From: an uncultured virus (IMG/VR IMGVR_UViG_3300020463_003402)
Lineage: Duplodnaviria; Heunggongvirae; Uroviricota; Caudoviricetes
DNA: 64,000 nucleotides
Virus record (IMG/VR): IMGVR_UViG_3300020463_003402
Direction: 5' to 3' (one strand)
A program made the position numbers and the translations under genes. This document shows positions 322-61,794 of this stretch, one piece after another (the first letter of the stretch is position 1; the number at the start of each line of letters is the position of its first letter). The notes under the pieces were generated by a model that had not been told where the DNA came from, searched no databases, and saw nothing but the letters and a program-made list of their open reading frames with translations.

Positions 322-340
322 GTTGTAGCTCCAATTATCG

Positions 341-910
341 TCAATCTCTTAGCGCTATGCGCTTATTTATCCAACCAAAGACAAATGTTTCGTCTGTCTC
401 TCGGGATTCGGCCAGTTCTAAATAATAAGCACCTTGTAAACAATTGAGCGCTTTTAAAAGAACAGGTTCGGCCAAGGCTTTACGATGAGCAAAGTAAAGC
501 TGCATGGCCTTAAGGGTTTTGCTACCAAATATCCCATCCACCTTTATATCGATGTAGATGGTTTGCATCTTATTAAAGGCATTCAACGCACGCTGCAGGA
601 ACTTAATCCCTGTGCCGGTACCAAGATTTACCCCAGCTTCAAACACCTCCCACGCTACGTCAGGGCTTACCGAAGCCAGCTCCGAGATACGAGGGCCAAA
701 CCAATAGGTCTGTAAGTAGATTTCTCGGGCTTTGGATTGCGGCATATCTTTCATAGCGCCAGTGTAACCGTGAGCGCGTGCAACCTTTTCAGTAATTCCC
801 CAGTTCGTAGGCCCACCTTTATCGTGAGGGTTATCTACGTACCCCGCTTCTAGTTTCACAATTTGAGCGACGTAAGCTTGGACTCTTGGGTCTGCGGAGT
901 AGTTAGCCAT
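341..910 (-). CDS. Endolysin, glycoside hydrolase family 108 with C-terminal peptidoglycan-binding domain
   Basis: EAGYVDNPHDKGGPTNWGIT GH108 signature; LQRALN...VDGIFG; ATG at 910 with GAGG SD. Confidence 0.9.
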   Translation of the reverse strand: MANYSADPRVQAYVAQIVKLEAGYVDNPHDKGGPTNWGITEKVARAHGYTGAMKDMPQSKAREIYLQTYWFGPRISELASVSPDVAWEVFEAGVNLGTGTGIKFLQRALNAFNKMQTIYIDIKVDGIFGSKTLKAMQLYFAHRKALAEPVLLKALNCLQGAYYLELAESRETDETFVFGWINKRIALRD

Positions 911-1361
911 TTTTAGCCTCAAAATTTTTGTTTTTAACCAGTTCTTTTAAATAGGACATTGTTTGTGATTGCTGGTTACTGATCTGGGTCATATGCTGAA
1001 TGACGATACTTTGGTCAGATTCCAGTTTTGAAAGACGGTGATTTATACCTGAGAGGGCTTGGTCAATATGTTGCTTGTTGAATTCAAGCTTTTCGTTAAC
1101 GCGTTCTTCTCTAGGGTGAGCCAATGCAACGTGCTCTTTAAAGGCCGCGAGTTCTCCCGCGATTTTTGTGGCAGAAGCGTTTGCCGTGGCGTGGTTTTTA
1201 TTTACGGTTTCCCACAGGTTTTTATTACTTTGTGAAAAACTTTCATGTGCGCTTTTCATATCAGATTTTATTCCCGATATGATAAATAGCGCGATTGTTA
1301 CCGCTACACCACTAATAGTGGCCATCACCCCTAAGAGTGCTAGCAAGGTTGTTGAGTCCAT
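903..1361 (-). CDS. Membrane-anchored coiled-coil protein of the lysis cassette (holin/spanin candidate)
   Basis: One N-terminal TM helix then coiled coil; overlaps the endolysin start. Confidence 0.5.
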   Translation of the reverse strand: MDSTTLLALLGVMATISGVAVTIALFIISGIKSDMKSAHESFSQSNKNLWETVNKNHATANASATKIAGELAAFKEHVALAHPREERVNEKLEFNKQHIDQALSGINHRLSKLESDQSIVIQHMTQISNQQSQTMSYLKELVKNKNFEAKNG

Positions 1362-1362
1362 C

Positions 1363-1755
1363 TTAGTGCCCCAAATACTTCATTAAACCGAGATTAATAC
1401 CAAGTGAACTCAAGATAATTAGCACCCAGACGCCAAAGTATGAGAGCTTTAAGCGAAGGGTATTTATAGAAAAATAAGATACATCGGAGGACCGCGTTTT
1501 GAAGTTTAAGAACCTGCGATAATCCCCACTCTTTTCCGCAGCTAGAAATGAGTTGAGTATCTGGCAGACACTATCCTCATAACTAACGTCTAGAAGCACT
1601 GAAGTAAAAGTGTATCGGCCTTTCTTAACGGCCAGAGGCGAACAGATAAATAGAGCGACAAGTTTCTGTCGTTCATTGAAGATTTTAATAACTTCACTTT
1701 CGGTAGGAATTTGCTCAACTTTTATATTGAGCTTAGAGGGATCGAGTATGCCCAT
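1363..1755 (-). CDS. Hypothetical protein with C-terminal TM helix
   Basis: ORF; ATTGACGAT motif and SD-like AGGCGG upstream. Confidence 0.55.
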   Translation of the reverse strand: MGILDPSKLNIKVEQIPTESEVIKIFNERQKLVALFICSPLAVKKGRYTFTSVLLDVSYEDSVCQILNSFLAAEKSGDYRRFLNFKTRSSDVSYFSINTLRLKLSYFGVWVLIILSSLGINLGLMKYLGH

Positions 1756-1830
1756 CTTGCCGCCTAAGTATCGTCAATTAGCCTAATTTTCAATCAAGCA
1801 TACTACCCTTAAGCAAGACTGTAAATGAAC

Positions 1831-1850
1831 AATGGCCATCCTTGGCCATT
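1831..1850. terminator. Hairpin after the tail-fibre cluster
   Basis: AATGGCCA-tcct-TGGCCATT inverted repeat; weak U-tract. Confidence 0.35.
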
Positions 1851-1855
1851 GATAG

Positions 1856-12100: not shown

Positions 12101-13745
12101 CCGAATACGCATGGCCTGTCTCGGGGTCCACAATATTGATAATATCCATAGGTTCAAATTCCATCCCTAATTGGGGTGCGGAAAAAGAAACCGTTCTAGT
12201 CTCTGTCGTTACGGAAGAGATATAAAACGTCATTCTACGTTTTACTTCCCAGATATCCGTCGCGCCTTTTGCATCAAACTCGTGGGTATTCAACCCATAT
12301 TTAAGGATAGAGTCCTCATCACGAATCTCGGCAACGTACTGTTGTTCATAATCTAGTGAGGCATCGATGTAGCTTGAAGTCACAGCATTGTGGCGCTCAG
12401 ATAGTGCCGAAAAATTATACGAGAATGGAGACCCGTCCGTTTCGGTCATGCACATTTCAGGTGTAACCCAAGCAACTGGTAGGCTTGGCAAATCGGCTAT
12501 AAATTTTATTTCGCCGGAGTCTTCTTCAATCGGCCTAGCGAAAGCACTACCTAAGACATAACGAAGAACGTCCCACCCATTTTGAGGCTCAGTCAATACC
12601 GCATTAAATGTATAACGAGGGCACTTTTCCTGTCCCGTAATAGGGTTGGTTAAGTTCTTTTCATTAGTCTGAAAGTCATAACCATCCGCGTACTTCGCCA
12701 TACGATAAACGGTATAACGATTAATCTTCACGCGGGGGTTTGCTTTTACTATGCCCCAAACAGGATTGGTAACCAGCTCATAAGCAATCCAAAATGGGTT
12801 GTCTGTAGTAGCCTTTTGAGCTTTAAACTGACCATCCCACGCCGAGCTCTCTTCATAAGTCTTGGCTTTAGGATCGTAATTGGAGGGTATTGAACACTTT
12901 ATCCCGTCATAATTGGCACTGACATTTGGGATATTTGTGAGCTGCTGGCCAAGAACCCCAACCACATGCATCATCGCAAGCCCAGGATGATACTCTAAAT
13001 CCGAGTCGCTATATTCCACACCGTTCTCGGTGTAGGCGTCACCAGATTTAGTTAACAGTTCATAGCTAGTCCAAGATATTGCCGCTATTTCTTCCTCATT
13101 AGAGTCTTCAGTCAAACGGGTAACTCTAATCTCAAACTGGTCATTAGGTTTAGTTCTGGGGAGGCGTATATTATGAACTTTTATAAAAGGACTGACCGTG
13201 GTTTTACCCGAAATAACCATAGAGCTAGAAACCCAGTTATCATCCAGTAGGTTTTTATACTCGATTCGAAAGTTAGCTCGGTGGGTTTTTGAACCATCAT
13301 CAGTGTAGCGAACTAACTGGGATACCGTAAAACGTAACTCAATCTCATCGAACCCCGACACTGTTGTAACCGTAGTTCGTGTCACCGGCGCGAGATACGC
13401 TAAGTTCGCAGAAACTTGCTGAATAATATTTTGTCCCCCTAAAGCAAACCATATAGGGGTTTGGCCTTCTTCAGGGTCGTCTTTTGCTGAAATCAAAGTA
13501 CCTTGCTCGAAACGCAGCATTAAGCTGGCGTTATCAAAGTTAGTTTGATTTAGGCTGTTGAATACTGGTGTATCGTCAATGAAGATATTGCGAAGCTTTT
13601 CTTCTGGGGTATCACCCACGACGCCGCCTATCGGTCCCTCGGATACTCCAAGGACGAATTCAAATGCGTCTGTAGAAAATAGGTTGTCCGCGTCATTAGA
13701 GGGTTTACTACCCCCTCCGCGGCCTTTGAACGTGTTATGCGCCAC
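9174..13745 (-). CDS. Central tail tip / host-specificity protein (lambda gpJ-like)
   Basis: GVSEGPIGG, TDNPFWIAYELVTNPVWG and PRYTFNAV gpJ motifs; 1523 aa. Confidence 0.9.
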   Translation of the reverse strand: MAHNTFKGRGGGSKPSNDADNLFSTDAFEFVLGVSEGPIGGVVGDTPEEKLRNIFIDDTPVFNSLNQTNFDNASLMLRFEQGTLISAKDDPEEGQTPIWFALGGQNIIQQVSANLAYLAPVTRTTVTTVSGFDEIELRFTVSQLVRYTDDGSKTHRANFRIEYKNLLDDNWVSSSMVISGKTTVSPFIKVHNIRLPRTKPNDQFEIRVTRLTEDSNEEEIAAISWTSYELLTKSGDAYTENGVEYSDSDLEYHPGLAMMHVVGVLGQQLTNIPNVSANYDGIKCSIPSNYDPKAKTYEESSAWDGQFKAQKATTDNPFWIAYELVTNPVWGIVKANPRVKINRYTVYRMAKYADGYDFQTNEKNLTNPITGQEKCPRYTFNAVLTEPQNGWDVLRYVLGSAFARPIEEDSGEIKFIADLPSLPVAWVTPEMCMTETDGSPFSYNFSALSERHNAVTSSYIDASLDYEQQYVAEIRDEDSILKYGLNTHEFDAKGATDIWEVKRRMTFYISSVTTETRTVSFSAPQLGMEFEPMDIINIVDPETGHAYSGRAVKLESKAVTLRDPVYFDEGGTYNVKVMGKYENFDFTMDVLSSDIGKPIYRLKLKQPMPDLALFNKYAPVVVSASRNGQLIGLPKPWRIISVNENDSIPELYDFFCQEVNLNKHTDADNLIISEAPKYSFLLRPQVRKVKNLRVVDEEHIQVRGVEQINLWIGWELEAPLPPGGYFEVRITEQSVNGREYTTKTNNLYFEIQNVKLGDIQIEVRSAQGDNASPWTVLQWSTTMVSAEDLRDAGITPEIAIRYENYALTIDSKVMFDFGSTEVNRVNLLETNGVLGIQFKIYDDVDPDNRVHLLTKTAKSSLIIPKSEFEVAVEGKELPSDLYITARVVDLVGGFYPDLFQSPLAFQVSNPAQEITNLRYQYVFSDEDPHLVTWDDNNYGYEITLYKPDGQSAISSYKIYDSSQVFGFLRAAEGYVVKVKGFTNTLSYGKPKTITFTVTAPPTPPEEPTITNEGGIITLTPPKVDKTSSYYEFKYHSENVITEATDYSNGSTITLYSSAEGQVFHIWYRLASKEGFGAWVRKEITATEAFQVDLGSVVDQVLNYEGADWGKSLSDSITQMLADMTIWDERTTALGDTYENLILTQSSLDDANKINSLDIIALRGKVGDKTVQTQIVENNIVQIGYEDDEGNWVMGAPLARAFTELKIKNLDGDSVSVVSYMQALENAMGNLEATFTLGVVDEEQTFTGLEITGGSGVSAIKLYMDNLTFSNKAGKDFFTYDSSSQKLVMTADVEVRGTLVSTRKVTVTPNVMEIEDPNGFGPDNLWIWKGTPILNGAEPNYSALTKQNASLGWRDLNGNEYFGGSVTTGQLINGGDTTLLTLNPSVEVGPFTTNGNPKTVNCSLSWRGTFTSGDACPTNQDFVPSATLILERSFTGSGWSELQRMNITGTMTYIDFNADDYSDPDSSSCIQRDITSGSFTFTDTNTSQNNFYYRLRVIDQQRGLLQQFIDTQRLSLVSVEERPA

Positions 13746-13777
13746 TTAAGCCCCAATATCGTCAATTTATCCAGATT

Positions 13778-15348: not shown

Positions 15349-15833
15349 ATTATTACCGTACTAAATTCGGGCTGGATATATCTGCGTGGGGGGAACTTAG
15401 TTTTATTACCGTCAGAAAGCCTTCTTAACTGAAGGGTGAGAATAGACGAGCTAATATTACTAGGGTGAGAAACATAAAAAACGTGGCGAGACGTTAGAGA
15501 GCCACCTTTTTCGTGAGGAAGTGCTTTGTAGCGTGTCACCACCGAATCTTCTAACAAGCCTTGGTTTAGATAATAACTGTATAGCCCCCCCTCGTTGGGG
15601 AGTGATAGGCTAGGACGGTTCTTCTCTCCGGTGGATTTATTGGATATACCAGAGACTTTAAAAGGTGAATGTACCCATGTGGAACCATTCCAGTCACGGG
15701 TTTCTCTATCCGTAAGACGAATAATAACCGGCTGACCATCGGTGTCTTCGATAATGATTTCTAAATAGGTGGTTAAGTCTTCAGGGGTCAGCGAATGCCG
15801 TTGAGACTGAATTTCTTGTGAAAGTTCTTTCAT
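15345..15833 (-). CDS. Minor tail protein (lambda gpL-like)
   Basis: PFKVSGIS..GEKNRPSLSL; synteny; ATG abuts GGAAATTGACG. Confidence 0.7.
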   Translation of the reverse strand: MKELSQEIQSQRHSLTPEDLTTYLEIIIEDTDGQPVIIRLTDRETRDWNGSTWVHSPFKVSGISNKSTGEKNRPSLSLPNEGGLYSYYLNQGLLEDSVVTRYKALPHEKGGSLTSRHVFYVSHPSNISSSILTLQLRRLSDGNKTKFPPRRYIQPEFSTVII

Positions 15834-15902
15834 CGTCAATTTCCCTCAATTTTCGCCTAGTATACCGAAAAGAGGAATAGATTGAATATTTTTCAAGCGC
15901 CC

Positions 15903-15935
15903 AAAAACAGAACACCCCAGCAAGGCTGAGGCGTT
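15903..15935 (-). terminator. Intrinsic terminator of the candidate sRNA
   Basis: AACGCCUCAGC-cuu-GCUGGGGUGUU stem followed by CUGUUUUU. Confidence 0.7.
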
Positions 15936-15981
15936 GATTTGGAAATTGACGATAATTAGGAGCCACATGGACTACTAACCG
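15903..15981 (-). ncRNA. Candidate ~80-nt trans-acting antisense sRNA complementary to the genome-wide start-associated motif
   Basis: Own promoter and terminator; contains CUCCUAAUUAUCGUCAAUUUCCAAAU, the reverse complement of ATTTGGAAATTGACGATAATTAGGAG. Confidence 0.7.
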
Positions 15982-15987: not shown

Positions 15988-16016
15988 ATACTACGGACTC
16001 ACAATTTTATTGTCAA
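15988..16016 (-). promoter_or_regulatory. Sigma70 promoter of the candidate sRNA
   Basis: TTGACA-17bp-TAGTAT with an AT-rich UP-like tract at 16017-16050. Confidence 0.75.
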
Positions 16017-19400: not shown

Positions 19401-21761
19401 GGCGAACCCCGCCGCGGTACCTAATCCCCGACCAGTGGCAACCTTAGCAAGCCTAGAGATTGTGCTACCTTTACCTTTTCCTCCGGTCAGCATATCCACG
19501 CCGCCAAGTAACCCCGCGCCCAGACGAAGAACGCTCCTTGTGGCCAGCACGCCACCTAGTATCGAGGCCGGTACTGCTAAAGCGCTTAGAATGGGGCCGA
19601 GGTCTCTTACCACTGAAAGAAAGTCAGCGGTCTTTTCAGTAAGCTTGGTAATGGTGTCTAGTAGTGGCTCCATTGACTCGTAGACAATCGATTTACTGAT
19701 AGAGCCCAAACGGTCTAACTGGTTAGCTAATGCTTCCATCTGCGTGTCGTTCGCACGGGCCGCAGAACCACCAATACGCATTTGTTCGCTTAGGTCTTCC
19801 GCTACGCTAATGTTATTTGCAAAAGCTCCGTATGCAGATGCTGCACGCACTTCCATACTTTCCATAGCATCACGGACAGTAAAACCACTCTCGGCCAGCG
19901 TTTTCATTACTGGTATCAAACCGTGAGTCGTAATATCTAGGTCAGACATTGAGAGCCCGAGGTTGTGTACAATCTCGGTAAAAGACTCTGACGGTTTCTG
20001 CAGGGATATAATAATTTGTCGAAGGCCGGTACCAAGGGTCGAACCAGCTCGGATACCCGAGTTAGCCATTGCGCCCAGTGCGGAGACCGTTTCTTCAAAC
20101 GTCACATTAGACTGGGCCGCTAAGTTACCCGAGTACTGAAGACCTAAGGCAAGTTTATCAAGGTTCAATTTGGAGCTGTTCACAGCCGTAGTCATTTTGT
20201 CTACTATGTTGATCATCTGCGAACTGTCTTTATTAAATACCCCTAATGTTGATGTGGCGAGGTCAACGGCACTTTTTAAGTCAGAACCTACCGCGGTAGC
20301 AAAGAGCGTAACTCCCTCTATCGCATTCTGGATATCATTTTGACCTAAGCCAGCCTGACCAAGCGTTATGGCCGCATCTGCGACGTCCGTGGCTGTAAAC
20401 TTAGTTTTTTCAGAAACATCAATAAGGTTTTTAGACAGCTCTTCCATTTCCTCATTGGTGAGGTTCACAATGGATTGAAGTTGTTTGAACTGTCTATCTA
20501 GCTCAGTTGAGAACGTCGCGGACGTTGCAAGACCACCAACACCGGCGCCCATCACAGCGTAGTTACGAAGTAACTGCCCTTGGTTTCTGAATAGCTGGGC
20601 TCCGCCATCTAAGCGCTGATTGGTTTGCGATTGTCTAATCTGTTCAATACGACGAGCGACACGCTGTTGTTCGGTTACTTGTGTCGAGGGCCTCTGGGCT
20701 TTTTGTGCTGCTTTTTCAGCACGCTTGGCCTCGGCCGCAGCATCAGCGAATTCTTTTAATCGTGCTTTGGCAAGCTTGGTTGATTCTTCAAGTTCTCTTA
20801 GCGCTTTACCCGCGTTATTCTCTAGCGTTTTATTTCTCGTCTCCGGCGCGAGACTGGACTTCAGCGCTTTACGGGCGGCATTCTCGTAAACCTTATTCCG
20901 AGCAATAGCGTCCTCTAGTTGAGTTCTGTTCAACGTAGAGATTTGAGACGCTTTAACCTTCTGCCCTTTAGCTACGGTAGGGTTTAATCGAAACTCATCA
21001 TCATTGTAGGATTTAAGGGTTCGTCTTACAGTTCGAGCTTGCGTGTCTTGCGCTACTTCTGCTTTTTTAGAAGCGTCGGTAAATTTCTTTAGTCTTGCTT
21101 CCGCAGCGACTAAGCCTGACTCGAGCTTCTTAAGCGCATTTTGAGCTTTCTTCTCAAGACTGGTATCACCTAAGCGAATCGCATCGTTAAGCGCACTTTG
21201 TGCTCCACTACGTAAAAGCTTTTGCCTTTGAATCCCTGTGCGCAATTCACTTTCGTTTAACGTGTTTACTCGAGACTTATAGAGCTGGCTTCCTTTTGGA
21301 ACGGTAGGGTTCTTACGAAATTGAAGGTCGTAATAGTCAGCAAGGTCCTTTGCTTGTTTCTTGGCTTGCGCTTGGGCCTGTTTAGTGAAGCGGCCTGTAA
21401 TTTCCCCAAAGGCTTGATTCAGCCCTTTCACTAATTGCTGTTGCTGTTGAGGGTTGAGTCCCTTCCCAAGGGTTAAGGCAATTTGATCTAGTAACGCACG
21501 CGCATTCTTTTGGTTCTCACTTAAGATTTTGCGCTGAGTGTTAACTTCATTCTTAGCGTTCTGGGCGAGTTCAGAGCGCCCCTGTGGGGTGTCCTTAATG
21601 GCCTTAATGTTGGCTTGAAGTTGTTGACTAGCGGCTTGTGTGACCCGCTCTAGCTTTTCAAACTCGCGAGTTAGTTCCTCGATTACCTTTTTGGATTTAG
21701 GATCGACGGTAAAATTAAGTAAGGTATTTCTAATTGTATTGGATGCATTGCTGCCGGCCAT
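16440..21761 (-). CDS. Tape measure protein
   Basis: ~1770 aa helical; TMP core (KTKFTATDVADAAITLGQAG, MANSGIRAGSTLGTGLR). Confidence 0.95.
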   Translation of the reverse strand: MAGSNASNTIRNTLLNFTVDPKSKKVIEELTREFEKLERVTQAASQQLQANIKAIKDTPQGRSELAQNAKNEVNTQRKILSENQKNARALLDQIALTLGKGLNPQQQQQLVKGLNQAFGEITGRFTKQAQAQAKKQAKDLADYYDLQFRKNPTVPKGSQLYKSRVNTLNESELRTGIQRQKLLRSGAQSALNDAIRLGDTSLEKKAQNALKKLESGLVAAEARLKKFTDASKKAEVAQDTQARTVRRTLKSYNDDEFRLNPTVAKGQKVKASQISTLNRTQLEDAIARNKVYENAARKALKSSLAPETRNKTLENNAGKALRELEESTKLAKARLKEFADAAAEAKRAEKAAQKAQRPSTQVTEQQRVARRIEQIRQSQTNQRLDGGAQLFRNQGQLLRNYAVMGAGVGGLATSATFSTELDRQFKQLQSIVNLTNEEMEELSKNLIDVSEKTKFTATDVADAAITLGQAGLGQNDIQNAIEGVTLFATAVGSDLKSAVDLATSTLGVFNKDSSQMINIVDKMTTAVNSSKLNLDKLALGLQYSGNLAAQSNVTFEETVSALGAMANSGIRAGSTLGTGLRQIIISLQKPSESFTEIVHNLGLSMSDLDITTHGLIPVMKTLAESGFTVRDAMESMEVRAASAYGAFANNISVAEDLSEQMRIGGSAARANDTQMEALANQLDRLGSISKSIVYESMEPLLDTITKLTEKTADFLSVVRDLGPILSALAVPASILGGVLATRSVLRLGAGLLGGVDMLTGGKGKGSTISRLAKVATGRGLGTAAGFAARAIPGVGLATAVGTAGVYGYQYLDGRARANDRVDSTQAALNRGTSETKVYEDQLKKVGSAIDTLILKQNDLTNNESLQREIRRLNDEFRQQGLYIDDSIDSYDKLITKMKEFEDATRDGVGYLQNQNRNNFVDNSEAKLNELFSIGFFDSSERRLLAEEKGTDVSVGSGKTATQRGRFASRGNVYRSLIDTALPNFGDDLAGINELIRNINPQEAGAYGRAQEARTQTQALQSQLFNILNQSPQELDSLMQQFGLSGDARDKAEEYINNLAQEMLNRANTLLEVENNQKQYDSLDPSIKEEERKIAQVVIKNRRELLNDIAETSEEINALTEKNKDYETSDYLGTFKDINTLVRDQIKALLEDEKEAIAELEAQGVSNPRLVLQEQGYYQAAGEARGKLERSLQSVAKDARPDANLYYPARLAELDKELDVLRDQLRQVTDRETSDEIKTKLQELNLERERVANEQDTLFAAIDGNSPVSVAQRDRELNARVTLGNQEFDTIQAKTFARSRLERSIGEQQDLDVRDFKLLGDDDELSRLLTDVIGTEQGEINNALAKARQEAEKLRTQAEDTRYEAQRYIDISNNEGYTDETRERAAGIANDIESQAVQLEKEAIALEEQAVRQAKEALMDFANYLQETIVDNPALTDGRSKAKTRKSIEGIEGQNISLDSNLEDLSQASKEADRGLREFRDQMGDTVRKINQSIYESDQFRQTQAAIYGTQYSPLGEQGVDETYGGRGGKGVASQFANAGSYIVDEVNSSYENFDVLTQMTMEATEAAKGLGDAFGATFADIITGASDSEDAFRSLGVSILTEMANIATRALANQLIMSLFSGLGLMGGGMGGGMGGFFGGGMFTGGPVIAGSYKTGGLITSGMSTRDSTYAKVSRGEFVLRKAAVDALGLETVKALNSADPNSVKDKEMMNSNATQAMSASNSEGGGVVNVYVVSEKQLPPMGPNDVKAIIGDDIARDGELASLVAQVAMRTK

Positions 21762-21780
21762 CGTCAATTTCCCCTAATTG

Positions 21781-22439: not shown

Positions 22440-22452
22440 CGTCAATTTCCTT

Positions 22453-31057: not shown

Positions 31058-31075
31058 CGTCAATTTCCCAAATTG

Positions 31076-40396: not shown

Positions 40397-40467
40397 GAGG
40401 GGGGAATGTTCCCCCCTGTGGTTCAAAAAATTTGGTAATTAACTTTTTAAATTGGAAATTGACGACT

Positions 40468-41760: not shown

Positions 41761-41804
41761 ACGCTAACGGGTGGGAACATTCCCCCCTCTTTTGGAGATT
41801 GACG

Positions 41805-41960
41805 ATGCGCGAAGTGTGCAAAAAGTGTGGTGGCACCATGCTAGGTGATGGGTATAAAACGGTTGAGCACTGCGAGTTTGCTACCAACCCAGAAATTGAC
41901 TTTATGGCCCCTGATGAAGGGCCAGTTTATTGTGACTTTAAGGAAATTGACGATGAGTGA
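41805..41960 (+). CDS. 51-aa Cys-containing protein (not in the ORF track)
   Basis: MREVCKKCGG...HCE...YCDFKEIDDE; palindrome plus GGAGATTGACG-ATG start. Confidence 0.7.
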   Translation: MREVCKKCGGTMLGDGYKTVEHCEFATNPEIDFMAPDEGPVYCDFKEIDDE

Positions 41961-44042: not shown

Positions 44043-44065
44043 AATTGACGATAAGGAGAAAAGCC

Positions 44066-44684: not shown

Positions 44685-44730
44685 GGGGGAATGTTCTCCC
44701 CCTTTGAAATTAACTTTTTGGAGATTGACG

Positions 44731-45558
44731 ATGAATAAAGGTTTGAAATTAGGTAACGGTGCCGTAGTACAGGCCCAAATGATTGTATGGAATAAAGATA
44801 AACTTGGTGACGCCATGAGTAACTTAACGGATTACGAGGAAAGGCAAGTTCACCTTAAGTTAGTCGAAAAGAAGACACCGGCTTCAACTAAAAATTACGA
44901 AACACTGATTGCCGTGGAAGAAATAACACAAAATAGTTTCTCTACGAAAATCCCCCTCACCTGTCCTGAGACCGCGAATGCAATCATTACGGCATTCACC
45001 AACGAGGCGGATGTTGAGCTGGGCTACTATGTTTACCACGCCCACCAAACACACGGGGGCTCTGAACCTGTAGCCTTTAGTGGTTATGATTTTGCCCAAT
45101 CGTATTCAGATATTCTTTCAATGGTACGTAGCGAGATATTTGTGATTAATGGTAAGGGCACGGGCTTTCACAAACGTAAGCCAGAACCAAGGCAATACCC
45201 TCAGGAAGTGGGGCTTCAACCTGAATTGCCAAAAAGAAGAGCCTATATTGATCACAGGGGTAAAACTCCAGATAGATTAAATCTTAATTGTAGTCTAAAA
45301 AAACAATTCATTGTTCCGCCGGAGTCCGGCTGGGAAGAACATACGTGGTATCTGGTTGATGTTTCTTTTAGAGGGGTCAACCCAATCCACCGTGTGCTCT
45401 TTTTCTCGGGATTCCTCAACGATAAAGATAATGGGCCTGGGGGTTATAACCAACTTTATTCGCCTAATTACGATAAAGATGCCTCATATAATATTAAGGA
45501 TGTTGTTTATCTCTCAGTAGCGAAAAAGCTGGCGTCTGAGGATGAATGGGGCGTTTAG
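44731..45558 (+). CDS. Hypothetical protein
   Basis: Palindrome plus start motif. Confidence 0.7.
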   Translation: MNKGLKLGNGAVVQAQMIVWNKDKLGDAMSNLTDYEERQVHLKLVEKKTPASTKNYETLIAVEEITQNSFSTKIPLTCPETANAIITAFTNEADVELGYYVYHAHQTHGGSEPVAFSGYDFAQSYSDILSMVRSEIFVINGKGTGFHKRKPEPRQYPQEVGLQPELPKRRAYIDHRGKTPDRLNLNCSLKKQFIVPPESGWEEHTWYLVDVSFRGVNPIHRVLFFSGFLNDKDNGPGGYNQLYSPNYDKDASYNIKDVVYLSVAKKLASEDEWGV

Positions 45559-45596
45559 CCCTCTTTGGAATTAACTTTTAAATTTGGAAATTGACG

Positions 45597-46496
45597 ATGC
45601 AAATAAACGTAAACAGTTATTTTTGTGGTGCTGGCCTGATGGATATTGGGCTGATAAATGCGGGATTAACTATTAACCAGTCTTTTGAAATTGATACCGA
45701 CGCGGTTAAGACGTATCGCGAGAATATTGGCCACCATGTTCAACAGTGCGATTTGACTGAAGAGCTCGTGTTAAACCAAGAAGAATGCGATGCGATGGTT
45801 TTTACCTACCCTTGCACCAAGTATTCCACGATAGGTGATATTCACGGCGTAAGAACTGGTGACGATTTATTCCTTCATGCTTTGCGTCACTTAGCCATTC
45901 GCAAGCCCGATGCCTACGTGGTGGAAAATGTGCCAGGAATGAGAGCGTTTCCGCTGGTAATGGAAGCTATGACAAAGTTGCCGGATTACTACGTTCACGT
46001 TTTTTGTCCGGTCCAATCTCAGCATTGGTTACCCCAGCGAAGAGATCGTCTGATTATTTTTGGTACCCGCCGACCTTTTGAAGTTCGCCCCCCTAAGAAC
46101 TGTCGTCCAGTGACGCTGGCTGAAATTGTCGAGCATGACCCAGAAGTAACCTTGCCCAGCGCTATTAAAGCGCGAATGTCGGGTAAGTACCGTGACCTCC
46201 CAATAATCAGCGACCCCAGCAAAGGAGATATCGCGCCGACTTGTGTTGCTCACTACGCCAAGGATAAATCGACACGCTTGGTTGCTGACAAGCGATTCCC
46301 AATGGGTGTTCGTCCTTACTCAGTGCGTGAGTATGCGAGGCTACAAGGAGTACCAGACTGGTTTACGTTCCCTGTCTCGGCTACGGCAGCATATCGCCAG
46401 ATTGGTAATGGTGTGTCAGTGCCGAAAGGTGAATGGGTAGGCGGCGAGTTGTTCCGCTATTTTCAACAAAGTAAAAAATTAGACAAGGTGGCTTAA
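45597..46496 (+). CDS. DNA cytosine-5 methyltransferase
   Basis: FCGAG, YPC, ENV, QRRDRL and YRQIGNGV motifs. Confidence 0.92.
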   Translation: MQINVNSYFCGAGLMDIGLINAGLTINQSFEIDTDAVKTYRENIGHHVQQCDLTEELVLNQEECDAMVFTYPCTKYSTIGDIHGVRTGDDLFLHALRHLAIRKPDAYVVENVPGMRAFPLVMEAMTKLPDYYVHVFCPVQSQHWLPQRRDRLIIFGTRRPFEVRPPKNCRPVTLAEIVEHDPEVTLPSAIKARMSGKYRDLPIISDPSKGDIAPTCVAHYAKDKSTRLVADKRFPMGVRPYSVREYARLQGVPDWFTFPVSATAAYRQIGNGVSVPKGEWVGGELFRYFQQSKKLDKVA

Positions 46497-46739: not shown

Positions 46740-46750
46740 GGAAATTGACG

Positions 46751-47029
46751 ATGTGTAATTGTTTTGAAGAAACGATGGAAAAAGTAACCGAGCATATTAA
46801 AGAGCAATTGCCGGACAACGTGGAAGAATTTAAAGCCGAATGGCAGGGCCGAGCTTATATGCTTGCGGAAGGTCAGTATGCTCCAACCAGTCCTAAAATT
46901 GACTACGAGTATCGGCCTATGAAGCGAGACGGTACCCCGCAAAAGAATCTTAAGAAAGATTCAATAACGATACTAGCAAGCCATTGCTGCTATTGTGGTG
47001 AGAAGTTCGAAAGACCTGAAAAGTCGTAA
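46751..47029 (+). CDS. Small Cys-rich protein
   Basis: MCNC...CCYCGEK; start motif. Confidence 0.7.
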   Translation: MCNCFEETMEKVTEHIKEQLPDNVEEFKAEWQGRAYMLAEGQYAPTSPKIDYEYRPMKRDGTPQKNLKKDSITILASHCCYCGEKFERPEKS

Positions 47030-47088
47030 CGCTCGGGGGAGAATATTCCCCCCTCTTAATTAACTTTTAAAATTGGAAATTGACGATC

Positions 47089-47892: not shown

Positions 47893-48025
47893 AGAACTAG
47901 CAGAAGAAGAAATCGCGGAAGAAGAAAAAGTCCTGGCTGAAGCAAAAGCGATTGCTGCAGCCGTTTAACCTGGGGGGAATGTTCTCCCCCTTCAATTAAC
48001 TTTTACAATTTGGAAATTGACGATT

Positions 48026-50222: not shown

Positions 50223-50271
50223 CTACAGGGGGGAATTGCCCCCCCTATTTAATTAACTGAGGAAATTGACG

Positions 50272-50709
50272 ATGCGAGTATCAAACACAAAATTAGAAAT
50301 AAATATTGAAAGCGGGGACGACGCGCTATCTACCACCGAAGGGGCAGCGAGTGAAATAAAGAAAGCCCTACAGAAAGTAATAGATAGTATCGGTGATGAT
50401 GCGCCAATTGAAGGCTGCTCTGGAGCGTTTTTAGACTCTAACGGTAACGGTATGGGGGATTGGTGCCTCGATTTCGAAGAAATGGCCTGGATTTCAGACT
50501 GGGACGAATGGATTGAACACTGCAAAGAGTATATCTGTGAGAACGGTTTCTACCTCGAACAGGAAAGCACCACTGTCTATGAGTGGGACACGTTAGCCGA
50601 ACTCGACGAAACGGCGTTAGCTGAGTGGTTCAGTAATTACACGGACAGCGCGGTAACTCGCGAAGAAGTTTGCCCTGAAGCGCGTAACTGGGGATGGGAC
50701 AGCGAATGA
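50272..50709 (+). CDS. Highly acidic protein (DNA-mimic candidate)
   Basis: About one quarter D/E; Trp-rich; palindrome plus start motif. Confidence 0.7.
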   Translation: MRVSNTKLEINIESGDDALSTTEGAASEIKKALQKVIDSIGDDAPIEGCSGAFLDSNGNGMGDWCLDFEEMAWISDWDEWIEHCKEYICENGFYLEQESTTVYEWDTLAELDETALAEWFSNYTDSAVTREEVCPEARNWGWDSE

Positions 50710-50918
50710 GTAAAAAATCACTAGGTACCCTCCTCAGGGCAAAAGGTACCGTGGCGTCCTATTACACCCCTCGACCTAATGAATCTAAGGTTAAGACTTT
50801 CAAACGAGCAAAAGCGGATGCCACGCTAAATCTACTTTCTCACTTGCACGACGTTGAACAGTTGACAGAGGAAGAGTTCTTCACTTTTTCACAACAGGAA
50901 ATTGACGATGCAAATTAG
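50706..50918 (+). CDS. Hypothetical protein
   Basis: ATGA coupling. Confidence 0.55.
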   Translation: MSKKSLGTLLRAKGTVASYYTPRPNESKVKTFKRAKADATLNLLSHLHDVEQLTEEEFFTFSQQEIDDAN

Positions 50919-51258: not shown

Positions 51259-51312
51259 ACCTTACAGGGGGGAATTGCCCCTCTTATTTAATTAACTTGT
51301 TGGAGATTGACG

Positions 51313-52152
51313 ATGCACCCTGAATTAACAAAACAACTGAAAGTAAATTGCGCGAAACTCGGGCTTTCATTCTCAAGCCTCGACCTAATTGGCGAGTCTG
51401 AGACTCAGATAAAAGATATCACTATTAAAATAGAGCGCGATGCGGATGTTGAAAGCCCTCGTGAGTGGGATAACGTAGGTACTATGGTGTGTTGGCATAG
51501 TAGATACAATTTAGGTGATGAACAACCGTCAGCAAGCTACCAAGACTACCGCATTGGTATGGTAGAAGACGTTGAGCCAGGGTTTGAAGCGATGTTGGAA
51601 AGACTCGAACAGACTTGGCTTTCAAAACCTTGGGAGGCTGAATGGACTAAAGAATACGAAGAACTAGTAGAAGCGAAGATAGAAGCACGACTTGAGAAAT
51701 ACTATTTTATCCTGCCACTCTACTTATACGATCATTCAGGCATTACGATGAATACCGGCGGATTATCATGCTCTTGGGATTCGGGTCAAGTTGGGTTTAT
51801 TTATGTCACTAAAGAGAGAGCCCGTGAACAGTATGGTTTTAAGCGATTAACGAAAGAACGTGTTCAAAAGGTCTACGAATACTTAGATAGCGAAGTTAAG
51901 ACTTATGCCGCCTATCTTGAGGGTGATGTATATGGTTACATTATCGAAGGTGAAGATATCAACGATTCTTGCTGGGGCTATATTGGGCCGGATGGAGAAG
52001 GCTCAGCATTATCCGAAGCTTTATCTAATGTTGTAGCTCATAAAGAAAGTCGGGTAGATAGACGAATAGATAAGATTAAAACTTGGATCAAAAACCAAGT
52101 CCCACTCTTAAAACGTCGCGAACTGGCAACAGAGTTACCAATATTGTTATAG
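51313..52152 (+). CDS. Conserved phage/mobile-element protein of unknown function
   Basis: SPREWDNVGTM, LPLYLYDHSG, WDSGQVGFIY, DSCWGY. Confidence 0.75.
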   Translation: MHPELTKQLKVNCAKLGLSFSSLDLIGESETQIKDITIKIERDADVESPREWDNVGTMVCWHSRYNLGDEQPSASYQDYRIGMVEDVEPGFEAMLERLEQTWLSKPWEAEWTKEYEELVEAKIEARLEKYYFILPLYLYDHSGITMNTGGLSCSWDSGQVGFIYVTKERAREQYGFKRLTKERVQKVYEYLDSEVKTYAAYLEGDVYGYIIEGEDINDSCWGYIGPDGEGSALSEALSNVVAHKESRVDRRIDKIKTWIKNQVPLLKRRELATELPILL

Positions 52153-53241: not shown

Positions 53242-53562
53242 TTACTCCCAAAACGTCGCTAAGAATCTTTTAAAATCCGAGAATGGGATATCCGATAAGG
53301 TAATTTTACTCACTACCGCACCGAGTCCCTTCTTCATGTGAGCGCGTTTTGCAATTTGTTGGTATTTGTAGAATTCTTCTGTGGAAATTTTGCCGTATCG
53401 CTCGGCATTTGAAATAGTATTCTTGTGAACGTCCGCAGCAATAGCGAGTTCTTCTTGCGTCAATCGATAGTTCTGGCGCATGTTTTTAAACTTTCGAGCT
53501 ATTCGCCTACGACGCTCTAGCTCCCATTGTGGTTCTATATTATCGTCAATTTTCTTAGACAC
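53242..53562 (-). CDS. XRE-family HTH transcriptional regulator
   Basis: LTQEELAIAADVHKNTISNAERYG. Confidence 0.85.
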   Translation of the reverse strand: MSKKIDDNIEPQWELERRRRIARKFKNMRQNYRLTQEELAIAADVHKNTISNAERYGKISTEEFYKYQQIAKRAHMKKGLGAVVSKITLSDIPFSDFKRFLATFWE

Positions 53563-53695: not shown

Positions 53696-53791
53696 GCAGC
53701 GTAACTTCGTTTTTAACTTGATATACCAAAGTTGAAAGCGTAGTTTTAACTCCGCCTACGGGCTTAACTTTAAAATTTGGAAATTGACGAT

Positions 53792-56153: not shown

Positions 56154-56179
56154 TTACTCAGACAATCAGGAAATTGACG

Positions 56180-56872
56180 ATGCAACTGCAAAAAGAACCC
56201 GCACCCCTCGGGCACTATGGTATTCACGAGGACGAAGGTGTTAACTATATCTACCAAGATACTTGTCCGCATGGCTGGAACTTTATCGGCCTAAGCACCA
56301 AATCAAATCTTACGGTTAAACAACTGAGAAACCAGTGCTCACATAATATCAATGTGAATTTAGCCACACGTAAGCTAAGCAAAATCCACTTAAGTAAGTT
56401 CAACAACATTGTAGCCGACCCACTGGTTCAAGCTATGTTACCGGTACCGAATGGAAAAACTTACTTCCTAGACGAAGAACAACTACCGGATGCTGCGGTA
56501 TGGCTTGCGTGCTTAGAACGGTTGAACTCTCCACTTTATACGTGGGTGAAGCCTTTGTTCGCTGTGAGCATGAACCACGCTATCAAACACATTGATAAAA
56601 CCAATATTCACCCAATGGTGTTTGTTGATTTGAAGAACACCGATAACGAATCTGTATTGAAGCTGGCCACGGCTGCAAAGACGTCTCCTAGAACGGTGAT
56701 CTTCTGCGGTGACTCCTCAATGGTGCTCCCAAAACACGTTCATCGTTTAGAAACGAAACTTAGTGAACTTATGCCACTACAAGATTTAATCAGCTTGCCC
56801 CTCGAACACTTGGGGAGTTACGTATTATCCGAGTACTGCAAAGGTACCCGTTCGTTTGACAAAGTAGCATAA
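56180..56872 (+). CDS. Hypothetical protein
   Basis: Start motif. Confidence 0.65.
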   Translation: MQLQKEPAPLGHYGIHEDEGVNYIYQDTCPHGWNFIGLSTKSNLTVKQLRNQCSHNINVNLATRKLSKIHLSKFNNIVADPLVQAMLPVPNGKTYFLDEEQLPDAAVWLACLERLNSPLYTWVKPLFAVSMNHAIKHIDKTNIHPMVFVDLKNTDNESVLKLATAAKTSPRTVIFCGDSSMVLPKHVHRLETKLSELMPLQDLISLPLEHLGSYVLSEYCKGTRSFDKVA

Positions 56873-56902
56873 GAATAATTGACGATAAGAGACACGATAG
56901 CC

Positions 56903-59045: not shown

Positions 59046-59178
59046 TTAATAAGCTAAGGTTACCATCTATACCGCATTAAACTGCGCTATAGCTGGACTT
59101 CGGAGAAAAGCGAAGGGCGAAAGCCGCACAAACAGTAATTAATCAAAATGTAATTAATCTACAATCAGGAAATTGACG

Positions 59179-60270
59179 ATGAACAATATCGAACAAATGA
59201 TCGCCGCTGCTCAAAATAACGCAGCTCAAGCCGCTACTGCTCAGCAAGAAACTCAAGTTACCCAGCAAGCCGTAGGTCAAGACTACCAGCAAGCTAACAC
59301 CGCTCAAGCCGATACTACGCAGCAGCAAGCTACACAGGCTCAAGCTAACCCTCAGGTTGTTAACCAGACTGAGACTTATACTCAGACTGCGGGAGCCACA
59401 CCACAACAAACCATGAACCAAGCTAACCCCCAAGTTGTTAACCAGCAAGCTAATACCACGCCGGTTAATACGCAGCAAACAAGTGCTATTCCACAGCACT
59501 TACAACAACAGTTACAAGCACAGCAAGCAGCGCAAGCCCAGCAAGCCCAGCAAGCCCAGCAAACGGCTCAGGCTCAGCAAACGCCTATGGCTGTGAACCC
59601 AGTTGGAAACACCGGCATGGACCTACCAGCGAACTTACCGCCAGAGTTGGCTAAGTTTATTGGTCAGCGCGAAATGTCGATGGATACCATGTCTAACTCT
59701 GACCTGTTGGTTCAAGATTGGCTGAAGCCAAGCTACCACGGTATGGTTTTAGGTAGTGCTCCGTCAACACTTCTTAACCCCTTCCAGGTTGAGATTGATA
59801 TGACTGAGAACGTGGGCTATATGTTGTGCCAAATGGTTCGCTGGACCGTAGCAGGGGCTACAGGTGACCAAACCAACTACGTTCACACATACGATGGTTT
59901 GATTGGCTCAGATGGCCAACCTTGGGCGAATGCGGTAATGACAGCCTACGGCACCACCACAGACCCGAAAAAGCCTAACGTACCGTTCCCCAGCGTTCAG
60001 TTACCAATGCGCTTAATCAACGACATTGCTAACCAACAAGGCGAGGTAATTGCTCAAGCAGGTATTATGATTGGTCATACTACGGCTAAGACGGGATGGC
60101 AGAACTGGCAGAACTTCCACAATGCGTGTAAGCAAGCTGGTTTATTAGGTCAGAAAGTGATTGTTGAAGTGTCTAACCAACCGGTTGCTCCTAAAGGTAT
60201 CACTTACAAGTGGGGTACCTTGGAATTCAAACTGATTGGTCCGGCACAAGGCCAAATCGCAGCACAATAA
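59179..60270 (+). CDS. Probable ssDNA-binding/recombination protein with a Gln/Ala-rich N-terminus
   Basis: Lies between helicase and exonuclease; low-complexity Q/A N-terminus; beta-rich C-terminus; own terminator. Confidence 0.45.
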   Translation: MNNIEQMIAAAQNNAAQAATAQQETQVTQQAVGQDYQQANTAQADTTQQQATQAQANPQVVNQTETYTQTAGATPQQTMNQANPQVVNQQANTTPVNTQQTSAIPQHLQQQLQAQQAAQAQQAQQAQQTAQAQQTPMAVNPVGNTGMDLPANLPPELAKFIGQREMSMDTMSNSDLLVQDWLKPSYHGMVLGSAPSTLLNPFQVEIDMTENVGYMLCQMVRWTVAGATGDQTNYVHTYDGLIGSDGQPWANAVMTAYGTTTDPKKPNVPFPSVQLPMRLINDIANQQGEVIAQAGIMIGHTTAKTGWQNWQNFHNACKQAGLLGQKVIVEVSNQPVAPKGITYKWGTLEFKLIGPAQGQIAAQ

Positions 60271-60285
60271 CCTTTTAATTAACTT

Positions 60286-60313
60286 AAAAAGGGTCGGCTA
60301 GTCCGGCCCTTTT
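60286..60313 (+). terminator. Intrinsic terminator
   Basis: AAAAAGGGTCGG-ctagt-CCGGCCCTTTT. Confidence 0.7.
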
Positions 60314-60332
60314 ACTCTCGGAAATTGACGAT

Positions 60333-61136
60333 ATGACAAAGCTAAAACTACACATTTGTGATGGTAATAACCTTCTTCGCCGCAAGTTTGAAAGCGATGG
60401 TCCTAGCTGGGCTATTCACGCCTATGTTCAGGCCTGTGCAAATAACTCACCTTATGGCTCATTAATATGGGTTTGGGATGGTGCGAACGCTAAGAAGCCT
60501 CGCCAAGATATCCACCCAGCCTATAAAGCCAGCTCCGATTCTACCGACGAATTTTACCTCTTCATGGATAAGTTTCGTGAATTACTTACACATTCAGGCT
60601 GCATTCAAATTCGATGTGAAGGCCGAGAAGCGGATGATGTTATTGCCGAGCTGGTAAATACCAAATCCCCTGAAACTGAAATCTTTATTGATAGTAACGA
60701 CCAAGACTATCGCCAGCTACTCAGCGACACGGTAACCATGGACTACGTTAGTGAGAAGCTTAAAGAATTCAAGCCTGATGATATGCGCCTTTACAAAACC
60801 CTGGTAGGTGATAAATCAGACGCCATTACCGGCCTTTCACGTTTTGGTCACGGCACGTATCAAAAGCTAAGTGACTTTGCCAAGTGCTTTTTAGAAGATG
60901 CTCTGCAGAGTGACGACCCTATCACAGCGGATCAAGTTGAAGCTGAAGCGGGTTTCACTAAAGCGATGGCTACTCGATTTGTTGAGAGTCGTGATGAGCT
61001 GAAGAAGTTCTGGAAGATCATCGGTTTCTTCCACGTACCACAAAGCGAAATTCACGCTGGTACGATTATCGGTAAGCAAGACACCGTAGCGGCCAAAGCT
61101 GTCTTCGACGCTTTAGCAATTCCTATCAACTTATAG
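60333..61136 (+). CDS. 5'-3' exonuclease / flap endonuclease (PolI N-terminal-like)
   Basis: DGNN, WDG, YKA, EADDVI, SNDQD, LVGDKSDAITG. Confidence 0.9.
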   Translation: MTKLKLHICDGNNLLRRKFESDGPSWAIHAYVQACANNSPYGSLIWVWDGANAKKPRQDIHPAYKASSDSTDEFYLFMDKFRELLTHSGCIQIRCEGREADDVIAELVNTKSPETEIFIDSNDQDYRQLLSDTVTMDYVSEKLKEFKPDDMRLYKTLVGDKSDAITGLSRFGHGTYQKLSDFAKCFLEDALQSDDPITADQVEAEAGFTKAMATRFVESRDELKKFWKIIGFFHVPQSEIHAGTIIGKQDTVAAKAVFDALAIPINL

Positions 61137-61167
61137 TGGTTGGGGCTTCGGCCCCTCGAGAACGATT

Positions 61168-61794
61168 ATGAGTAGCACAAATAAAAAGGTCGCTGAGTTC
61201 GAAGACTACCCTACCCCGCGAGAACTTGTCGAAGCCTTATTCAAGTATATTGACTGGGATGCACTTAGGCACTTTGCGTCCTACGACAACCGGCCAGCTA
61301 GGTTCCTAGAGCCGTGTCGTGGTCTGAAAAGAAATATCTACGACTTGGTACCACAGGACTTTGAAAAGTATTACTGCGAGATTCAGGAAGGTTTGAACTA
61401 CCTAGAGACAGACCTCAGCCCATTACACTTCGATATTATCGTAACTAATCCCCCATTCTCGCTTTTCGAAGAGTTTGTCACCAAAGCACGCAGTGAGGCC
61501 GCGGACCACGGGTTTGTATGCTTCTTAATGCGTATTAACGCTTTAGGGACAAAGAAGCGTGAGAAGTTCTGGGCTGATAATCCGCCCGATAAAATTATTG
61601 TCGCGGTACCTCGCCCTGACTTTAGTGGTGGGGGTGGTGATAGCTGCGAGTATGCGTGGTTCTGCTGGGACCCTACGGGGATCTTATTAGTAGACTCGAA
61701 CGTTGGGCGCCTTAACTGGGATAAGCCTAAAAAGCGTCGCAGCAAGAAGATAGACAACCGGAAATTGACTGATGAAAAAGAAAGCCAAGCGTAA
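61168..61794 (+). CDS. DNA N6-adenine methyltransferase
   Basis: DYPTP, FLEPCRG, IVTNPPFS, EYAWFCWD. Confidence 0.85.
   Translation: MSSTNKKVAEFEDYPTPRELVEALFKYIDWDALRHFASYDNRPARFLEPCRGLKRNIYDLVPQDFEKYYCEIQEGLNYLETDLSPLHFDIIVTNPPFSLFEEFVTKARSEAADHGFVCFLMRINALGTKKREKFWADNPPDKIIVAVPRPDFSGGGGDSCEYAWFCWDPTGILLVDSNVGRLNWDKPKKRRSKKIDNRKLTDEKESQA

Follow-up and report, generated by a model that had tools for sequence, protein, structure and literature searches.

A box repeated at gene starts of a siphophage and a candidate phage small RNA that may target it

Why should one short sequence recur, nearly unchanged, at about 35 translation starts of a single phage genome? The question is raised by a stretch of 64,000 nucleotides (nt) from an uncultured marine virus of the Caudoviricetes (IMG/VR record IMGVR_UViG_3300020463_003402), hereafter the window, in which the core ATTGACGAT, within a box of the form GGAAATTGACGAT, stands at gene starts on both strands. 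We describe this start-site box, a single reversed copy of it in a non-coding gap, and the joint change of the two among related phages. We favour, as reasonably probable, the reading that the box is the target of a trans-acting small RNA (sRNA) of the phage, which would block start sites in a manner resembling the RocC/RocR system.

The core occurs in 36 exact copies in the window (23 plus, 13 minus), whereas 100 dinucleotide-preserving shuffles averaged 0.54 and never held more than 4; a search for GGARATTGACGAT with at most one mismatch gave 31 matches, with 0.16 expected. A sequence-only reading of the window had counted by eye about 35 start-associated copies on both strands and had proposed an exact count with positional enrichment as the check; run as such, the check revealed a strong, start-linked excess. 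All 35 of the sites it had placed were present within 1-5 nt, 34 as exact cores and the one at 40454 as the variant GGAAATTGACGAC, and the two variants it had named were recovered as GGAAATTGATGAT at 37724 and GGAAATTGACTGATG near 61760. Its list lacked two exact cores, one on the minus strand within a tail-J-like gene (13572) and one reversed orphan on the plus strand (15945). The sense orientation within about 0-20 nt of a start codon that it had claimed holds for 34 of the 36 cores, which lie at or just upstream of a start. Judged from crude gene calls, core and start codon overlap (GAT-G) at 19 genes; the codon comes 0-1 nt after the core at 8 and 12-19 nt after it, behind a Shine-Dalgarno (SD) sequence of its own, at 7. 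The many "MTM" N-termini among the predicted open reading frames (ORFs) do arise from the box, as an artefact of ORF calling at an internal TTG (TTG-ACG-ATG).

Two classes of box can be told apart. Class 1 reads GGA[A/G]ATTGACGAT; its AUG either shares the last T (GAT-G) or stands 2-3 nt on (GATATG, GATTATG, GATCATG). Class 2 has no upstream GGA; the core is followed by TA(A) and then by a separate SD, with the start 12-19 nt downstream (337, 1770, 13758, 32871, 44044, 53542 and 56878, plus the orphan 15945). Among ORFs of at least 80 amino acids (aa), the box was found at 28 of 36 uncoupled genes (upstream gap of at least 10 nt, or first in a block) versus 3 of 31 coupled ones (gap below 10 nt; Fisher p 2e-8), in line with the earlier impression that genes not translationally coupled are its usual carriers. 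Start-associated boxes precede 12 minus-strand genes, 11 of which belong to the structural/lysis arm. The box is scarce in genomes of the host family: 20 of the 21 searched hold 0-1 copies each, and the remaining one, with 9 copies, is a metagenome-assembled genome (MAG) holding contigs of the window phage.

Many early-region genes are also bounded, like cassettes, by G-rich hairpins (GGGGGGAAnnTTCCCCCC) followed by TT..AATTAACTT and then by the box. Such hairpins lie at 38194-38209, 47035-47052, 50227-50246 and 51266-51284, with similar ones upstream of the boxes at 36725, 41798, 44724 and 48016, and part of them score as terminator-like. In relatives the corresponding positions are taken by different hairpins (GGGGCATGTGCCCC in the virus genome G004, GGGGACTCCCC in G005 and GGGGTAACGTTACCCC in Pseudoalteromonas phage KB12-38). 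These elements could be terminators, 3'-end stabilisers or ProQ-binding sites.

Matches to PHROGs identified the window as part of a siphophage, with lysis, tail, tape-measure, head, portal and terminase genes on the minus strand (1-32878) and primase, ligase, helicase, exonuclease and several methyltransferase genes on the plus strand (32964-64000), apart from a minus-strand island of two genes at 52479-53562. A tRNA search of the window found none, and Rfam returned no family at gathering score over its whole length. The closest record is the 81.4-kb virus record G001, which bears direct terminal repeats and in blocks shares about 91-99% identity with the window. A tyrosine integrase was found in all five relatives searched, and KB12-38, an isolate distantly related to the window phage, is annotated with an integrase and an excisionase; the phage family is therefore temperate. 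We infer an Alteromonadaceae host, since a MAG bearing that family name in its title includes a 3-kb contig whose terminase fragment is identical. The 45% G+C of the phage fits a host of that type.

The single reversed core (15945, plus strand; 15941-15965 with its flanks) falls within the 214 nt that separate two tail-region genes of the minus strand. On that strand this gap contains TTGACA-17-TAGTAT (16016-15988) and an 11-pair hairpin (15935-15911) followed by a T-run. The gap is kept in synteny in ten lineages, including relatives whose neighbouring protein is 34-45% identical. In eight lineages the -35 and -10 hexamers, read by eye, stand at the same place with a differing spacer sequence, and across ten lineages six of the nine consensus pairs of the terminator hold through compensatory changes on both sides. 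The antisense block is the best-conserved part of the sRNA and is unpaired in the consensus fold, and the fold of the sRNA region has a z of -3.3. With G004, whose terminase is about 60% identical in protein, a 1.1-kb query gave a DNA match only at the sRNA stretch (query 404-621). It is plausible from this conservation that the reversed copy lies in an independent small RNA gene. The contention of the sequence-only reading that an RNA complementary to the box could be identified thereby gains support from the conservation of the promoter, the covariation within the terminator and a seed that changes along with the box in relatives.

Coding alternatives for the gap did not stand: a 61-aa ORF (15781-15966) overlapping the sRNA is broken by 2-nt and 4-nt indels in relatives, and a 3-codon mini-ORF on the plus strand is not conserved in sequence among them. 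Rfam gave no match for 15850-16050 at E up to 1. A TATACT invariant in five aligned sequences lies downstream of the terminator and 14 nt before the box of the tail gene, and would put that box in a 5' untranslated region. Metatranscriptome contigs of three studies end within 11 nt of one another inside the terminator hairpin (X13 at 15913, X16 at 15918 and X1 at 15924); these ends could be the end of an RNA or assembly breaks at the hairpin.

Comparison of the lineages brought box and RNA together, since by sequence the box of each lineage is the complement of its own sRNA seed. The sRNA of G002 carries an A-to-G change and reads ...AUCGUCGAU..., and its boxes are divided between 21 ATTGACGAT and 19 ATCGACGAT; in five genomes whose sRNA has A, the corresponding ratios are 36:0, 43:0, 29:0, 27:0 and 41:2. 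An sRNA G can pair with either U or C, whereas A would not pair with C, and G002 appears from these sequences to have been caught midway through a G-U intermediate. A similar relation was seen at position +9, the base after GAT. Where the sRNA has U opposite it (window and G002), the boxes have A or G (14/21 and 14/25); where the sRNA has C (G004 and G005), they have G in 29/31 and 28/30, and GATATG-type starts occur only in lineages with the sRNA U. The G005 sRNA lacks a mirror of GGA, and GGA shifts by 1-2 positions among the boxes of that genome. The altered boxes of more distant lineages are mirrored by the lineage's own sRNA in G007 (GGATTGACGATATG), in KB12-38 (GGATTGACA; 27 GGATTGAC) and in G008 (CCATTAGGATTAACAAAC, or GGATTAACAAAC; 39 GGATTAAC vs 2 GGATTGAC).

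Within the window, seed and box are complementary over 13-25 nt at 34 starts, and the predicted duplexes at these box-bearing starts average -25.7 kcal/mol, compared with -10.4 kcal/mol for a reversed-seed control. The other 52 starts gave about -13 to -15 against -12 to -13 kcal/mol for the control. The strongest predicted duplex (-37.9 kcal/mol, about 25 nt including the SD) falls on the small gene at 1-321, beside the endolysin gene at the integrase-proximal end.

A possible protein partner is encoded by the relatives. Hits to PF04352 above the cut-off came from each of the eight near-complete relatives and from KB12-38 (G001, G002, G004-G008, G010, KB12-38), the last of which is annotated with a ProQ-domain protein. 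The G001 ORF (Pfam E 7e-13) aligns to the N-terminal FinO domain of Escherichia coli ProQ (5nb9, E 1.6e-6), and its gene (L052 1363-1866) is situated outside the window, about 6.5 kb beyond the left end. A ProQ profile scan of viral contigs hit only this phage family, at 11 loci, one of them on a further contig. Achromobacter phage JWF, related and syntenic in the tail region, has no ProQ domain in its complete record, and in its first 50 kb there is neither an enriched start box nor a gap at the syntenic place. Box, sRNA locus and ProQ gene accordingly occur all together in nine genomes and are all missing from one (JWF), a small sample. It is plausible, judging from this co-occurrence, that the protein is a dedicated phage chaperone for the sRNA.

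Two further observations concern these genes. In JWF (L098, 23099-23988) the genes that flank the sRNA gap elsewhere overlap directly; this phage is a natural negative control. The ProQ gene start has no canonical box in any of the seven lineages inspected (L052-L056, L086, L092); three have degenerate versions, ATTGACGAG 9 nt before the ATG in G001 and G006 and GGATTGATGATG in G007. The presumed ProQ helper may escape the control that it serves.

How the parts might work together can be outlined as follows. In the mRNA, the box GGA[A/G]ATTGACGAT(G) would be a ribosome-binding region consisting of an SD-like GGAR, a fixed 7-nt spacer and the AUG, and its uniformity at about 35 genes on both arms would be kept by one phage-encoded sRNA that targets them all. 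This RNA, about 80 nt in length, would be made from the minus strand (about 15981-15903), starting at a sigma70-type promoter of its own and stopping at an intrinsic terminator. Its seed, predicted to be single-stranded between a 5' hairpin and the terminator, would be the Watson-Crick mirror of the box and, at class 2 sites, of the downstream SD as well. Pairing would cover SD, spacer and start codon and keep 30S subunits off; in established sRNA biology, covering of SD and AUG blocks 30S binding. The outcome would be a genome-wide translational brake or threshold on the lytic genes of a temperate phage, in which a constitutive sRNA would silence leaky lytic mRNAs, possibly also those of superinfecting kin, and would be titrated out by a surge of transcription. 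The sRNA probably works with the phage's own ProQ/FinO-domain protein. The integrases of the relatives, as marks of a temperate family, therefore give a silencing function a plausible use. We infer sRNA production, pairing in trans, repression, and help from ProQ rather than host Hfq; the translation-level view of the box taken by the sequence-only reading is supported.

A more far-reaching version, which we regard as doubtful, joins all of these elements into an RNA master lock. The sRNA loaded on the FinO/ProQ protein would pair with a private ribosome-binding box at about 40% of the phage genes, so that leaky transcripts in the lysogen and the mRNAs of superinfecting kin would be silenced until, after induction, a burst of transcripts titrated the sRNA. 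Each lineage's own combination of seed and box would mark out an RNA-based immunity group, and the single reversed copy as antisense partner would also explain the start-associated sequences (SAS) of the Cluster K mycobacteriophages.

A number of results weigh against the sRNA reading. Promoter and terminator scans of the 1-kb region around the locus were not above shuffles (for promoters, 2 found and 2.5 expected), and the case for an sRNA gene therefore rests on conservation. Metatranscriptome contigs from four of 21 runs cover the locus (15808-16168 in X12, 15924-16086 in X1, 15596-15913 in X13 and 15696-15918 in X16), without strand, ends or level and with no excess over the flanks; in X1 the sRNA stretch is covered no better than the flanking genes. 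The ProQ gene is known only from relatives and not from the window. The box precedes structural and early genes alike, as well as a candidate repressor-region gene, and a logic of keeping lytic genes off is therefore not obviously selective. In G008 the sRNA U would allow G, yet the boxes stand 39:2 for A. The orphan is not the centroid of the copies: its rank is near the median in five of the seven genomes, although it comes first in G008 and third in KB12-38, and an argument for the sRNA from a master copy fails on this count. Covariation alone, being a matter of sequence, cannot separate sRNA-box pairing from an orphan that is an extra box read by another factor.

Wobble pairing was assessed in seven genomes, each with 24-48 start-linked sites at up to three mismatches. 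Departures of the boxes from the sRNA complement at sRNA U/G positions, where transitions keep a G-U pair, comprised 182 transitions and 84 transversions, against 48 and 119 at sRNA A/C positions (odds ratio 5.4), a figure of limited weight given sites that are not independent but related by descent. The asymmetry is also driven largely by positions that can be explained otherwise, namely the SD strength of GGAA/GGAG, the G of the AUG and the ancestral T in G002. Cleaner contributions come from C-to-T changes opposite sRNA G, with 7 transitions and no transversions in KB12-38 and 9 vs 5 in G008.

That the box is instead read by a protein, whether an RNA-binding regulator such as RegA of T4, a ProQ-like protein or a DNA-binding factor, with the orphan as a further site or decoy and the sRNA incidental, seems to us unlikely. 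Box and orphan would covary under this explanation too, the average rank of the orphan in 5 of 7 genomes suits it, and many boxes share flanks, such as A-rich second codons and an upstream AATT, to which the sRNA has no complementarity. Against it stand the conserved promoter and the compensatory changes in the terminator on either side of the orphan on its antisense strand; the G002 boxes, half C and half T, with both of which the G in the sRNA from the single orphan pairs; and the restriction of GATATG-type boxes to lineages whose sRNA has U opposite. No sequence-specific RNA-binding candidate other than ProQ emerged from the PHROGs scan or from a Pfam scan of 16 selected proteins.

Quite unlikely, in our estimate, is an autonomous "super" ribosome-binding site, which would act through contacts with the ribosome or 16S rRNA and be kept uniform by selection on expression or by recombination of cassettes, with a minor role for the sRNA. 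GGAR does stand at SD distance from the AUG, AATTAACTT, which resembles a known phage translational enhancer, often precedes the box, and the box marks cassette-like units bounded by the G-rich hairpins. GGAA is, however, a weak SD, the box differs between lineages in step with the sRNA and is not fixed to a universal rRNA site, and its complementarity to 16S rRNA is no better than that of shuffled boxes: for five strings (four box forms and the upstream AATTAACTT) and the 16S rRNA of three host-family genomes, the longest G-U-tolerant runs were 7-10 nt, whereas 30 shuffles averaged 8.6-9.3 and reached 12 at most. A transcription signal (a promoter, a -35-like TTGAC element or an activator site) is very improbable, even though the core most conserved across lineages (TTGAC, TTAAC) resembles a -35 hexamer and the terminator-like hairpins that separate many genes may call for separate promoters. 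At 27 genes the start codon overlaps or abuts the box, so that transcription would start inside the gene; the spacing between box and AUG is not constant (overlap, 0-1 nt, 12-19 nt), which speaks against leaderless starts at a set distance; and a PHROGs scan of 82 window ORFs, which leaves about 17 kb outside the window not fully annotated, revealed no phage RNA polymerase or sigma factor. As a sigma70 -35 element the box was rejected, with only 2 copies in 33000-52900 having a -10-like hexamer at 16-18 nt and with 21 promoter-like hits there, below the shuffle mean of 28.5.

Two features of the gene content lie beside this argument. The minus-strand island (52479-53776) runs opposite the ligase operon across a 214-nt gap and encodes a 106-aa protein with a weak HTH_3 match, with a box core inside or just before its gene, and a 252-aa protein without a family; from its layout it looks like a lysogeny switch region. 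At least three genes are DNA methyltransferase-like by PHROGs (45591-46496, 49411-50028 and 61168-61794), and the same arm of KB12-38 is annotated with DndB-like and PAPS-reductase genes, which together suggests heavy investment in DNA modification. The coordinates of the sRNA locus and of all boxes are collected in Table 1.

Table 1. Candidate sRNA locus and box copies in the window, in window coordinates.
Feature	Position	Strand	Basis or remark
Candidate sRNA promoter, sigma70-type (TTGACA, 17 nt, TAGTAT)	15988..16016	-	10/12 consensus matches; position conserved
Candidate trans-acting sRNA, about 80 nt	15903..15981	-	between promoter and U-tail; 5' end inferred
Putative seed, exact antisense of GGAAATTGACGATAATTAGGAGCC	15941..15965	-	most conserved sRNA alignment block; unpaired in consensus fold
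Candidate intrinsic terminator hairpin (15911-15935) and U-tail	15903..15935	-	11 pairs; compensatory changes
-10-like TATACT upstream of tail-gene box	15859..15864	-	invariant in five sequences of alignment A1; coordinates hand-counted
Box GGAAATTGACGAT, ATG 15833, minor tail-region gene 15345-15833	15832..15844	-	exact core
Class 2 box: core, AATTGGAG, ATG 321; gene 1-321	337..345	-	strongest predicted duplex, -37.9 kcal/mol
Class 2 box, ATG 1755	1770..1778	-	exact core
Class 2 box, GTG 13745, tail J-like gene	13758..13766	-	exact core, PHROGs
Box, ATG 21761, tape measure protein	21760..21772	-	exact core, PHROGs
Box, ATG 22439, tape-measure chaperone	22438..22450	-	exact core, PHROGs
Box, ATG 23332, 278-aa structural-region gene	23331..23343	-	exact core
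Box, ATG 27908, major head protein	27907..27919	-	exact core, PHROGs
Box, ATG 29521, 390-aa head-region gene	29520..29532	-	exact core
Box, ATG 31057, portal	31056..31068	-	exact core, PHROGs
Class 2 box, GTG 32857, terminase large subunit	32871..32879	-	exact core, PHROGs
Core in HTH_3-like island gene: 14 nt before ATG, or codons 4-7 of GTG ORF	53542..53550	-	exact core
Box, ATG 32970, first gene of plus arm	32959..32971	+	exact core
Box then TAAA; downstream gene doubtful (46-aa GTG ORF)	36290..36302	+	exact core
Box (GGAATTGACGAT), ATG 36735	36725..36733	+	exact core
Variant GGAAATTGATGAT, start of gene 37729-37968	37724..37736	+	search with at most one mismatch
Box, ATG 38289	38278..38290	+	exact core
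Box, ATG 39186	39173..39185	+	exact core
Box (TGAGATTGACGAT), ATG 39604	39590..39602	+	exact core
Variant GGAAATTGACGAC, ATG 40468, DNA repair-like gene	40454..40466	+	search with at most one mismatch, PHROGs
Box, ATG 41805	41794..41806	+	exact core
Box, ATG 41953	41942..41954	+	exact core
Class 2 box, GTG 44066	44044..44052	+	exact core
Box, ATG 44731	44720..44732	+	exact core
Box, ATG 45597, DNA methyltransferase	45586..45598	+	exact core, PHROGs
Box, ATG 46751	46740..46752	+	exact core
Box, ATG 47089	47075..47087	+	exact core
Box, ATG 48026, DUF3560 protein	48012..48024	+	exact core, Pfam
Box, ATG 50272	50261..50273	+	exact core
Box, ATG 50908	50897..50909	+	exact core
Box, ATG 51313	51302..51314	+	exact core
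Box, ATG 53792, DNA ligase	53779..53791	+	exact core, PHROGs
Box, ATG 56180	56169..56181	+	exact core
Class 2 box, ATG 56903, HTH regulator-like gene	56878..56886	+	exact core, PHROGs
Box, ATG 59179	59168..59180	+	exact core
Box, ATG 60333, exonuclease	60320..60332	+	exact core, PHROGs
Variant GGAAATTGACTGATG, coupled gene from 61772	61758..61774 (approximate)	+	start-region listing
Exact core inside tail J-like coding region, off start	13572..13580	-	probably outside the system

Among described systems the closest analogue, by comparison of parts, is RocC/RocR of Legionella pneumophila, in which, according to the sections of PMC9977716 drawn on here, a FinO-domain protein and a trans-acting sRNA repress four mRNAs at their start sites. 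The parts by which that system is recognized have predicted counterparts here: a FinO/ProQ-domain ORF encoded by the element itself (in the box-bearing relatives), a terminator-ended candidate sRNA, and a seed complementary to a box shared by the target starts (PMC9977716, in the same sections). RocR has its four targets on a bacterial chromosome, whereas the sRNA proposed here would have about 35-45 candidate targets, roughly a third to two fifths of the phage genes (PMC9977716, as excerpted). Unlike RocC/RocR, moreover, a single mobile genome would carry RNA, targets and chaperone together, and its seed and box diversify jointly from lineage to lineage.

Phages offer a parallel in immunity. 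In P1/P7 (c4) and P4 (CI), a small phage RNA complementary to several sites of the phage transcripts silences lytic functions in the lysogen, and RNA and targets differ together between heteroimmune relatives. Those RNAs act on two or three targets within a single operon and are not known to have a genome-wide start-site box; what is shared here is a sequence prerequisite only, the lineage-specific pairs of seed and box. Another parallel is FinO/FinP of F-like plasmids, where, by the portion of PMC9977716 consulted, an antisense RNA, stabilised by a FinO-domain protein, covers the ribosome-binding site of a mobile element's master gene and so keeps the element quiet. FinP is cis-encoded with one target, whereas the candidate sRNA would be trans-encoded with dozens (PMC9977716, same portion).

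The sequence-only reading had likened the box in concept to mycobacteriophage start-associated sequences, and the likeness is apt. The SAS of Cluster K is described, in the extracts of PMC3203893 used here, as an asymmetric 13-nt repeat a few nt before starts, in one orientation, with an SD core and absent from the host, and K1 phages have a single reversed SAS that is not at a gene start. The window likewise combines a short one-orientation repeat at starts with a single reversed copy off gene starts, at 15945 on the plus strand. The two differ in that their sequences are unrelated and that the SAS is confined to the non-structural arm, whereas the box here occupies both arms (PMC3203893, as extracted); by sequence the window box is an analogue of SAS and not a member. 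SAS function was given as unverified as of 2025 in the part of PMC12699233 available. In Mycobacterium phage Anaya we found 16 forward SAS and one reversed (L097:34871-34883, minus strand). The reversed one is located between gp96 and gp97, in a gap of 385 non-coding nt, and gives the anti-SAS on the gene-sense strand. A scan found no sigma70-type promoter near this reversed SAS and no terminator-like hairpin adjoining it, the sole one in the scanned region being about 110 nt upstream.

Literature searches on ATTGACGAT, KB12-38, FinO/ProQ with a phage-encoded sRNA and Alteromonas siphovirus motifs found no description of this box-sRNA system. A single RNA of the proposed kind would probably be able to dampen the translation of many phage genes together. 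If the reading is right, no larger self-directed sRNA regulon has, to our knowledge, been described for a phage. The system would also provide the first function for a phage-encoded FinO/ProQ protein, homologues of which are mentioned without a function in the sections of PMC9977716 that we cite. For the start-associated sequences it would offer a testable answer to the question of their purpose, open since 2011 and still so in 2025 as far as the cited parts of PMC3203893 and PMC12699233 go. KB12-38, isolated on a Pseudoalteromonas host, is a relative suited to bench tests of the system. The phage family would, finally, represent a natural experiment in co-evolution, in which one seed and about 40 targets must change together.

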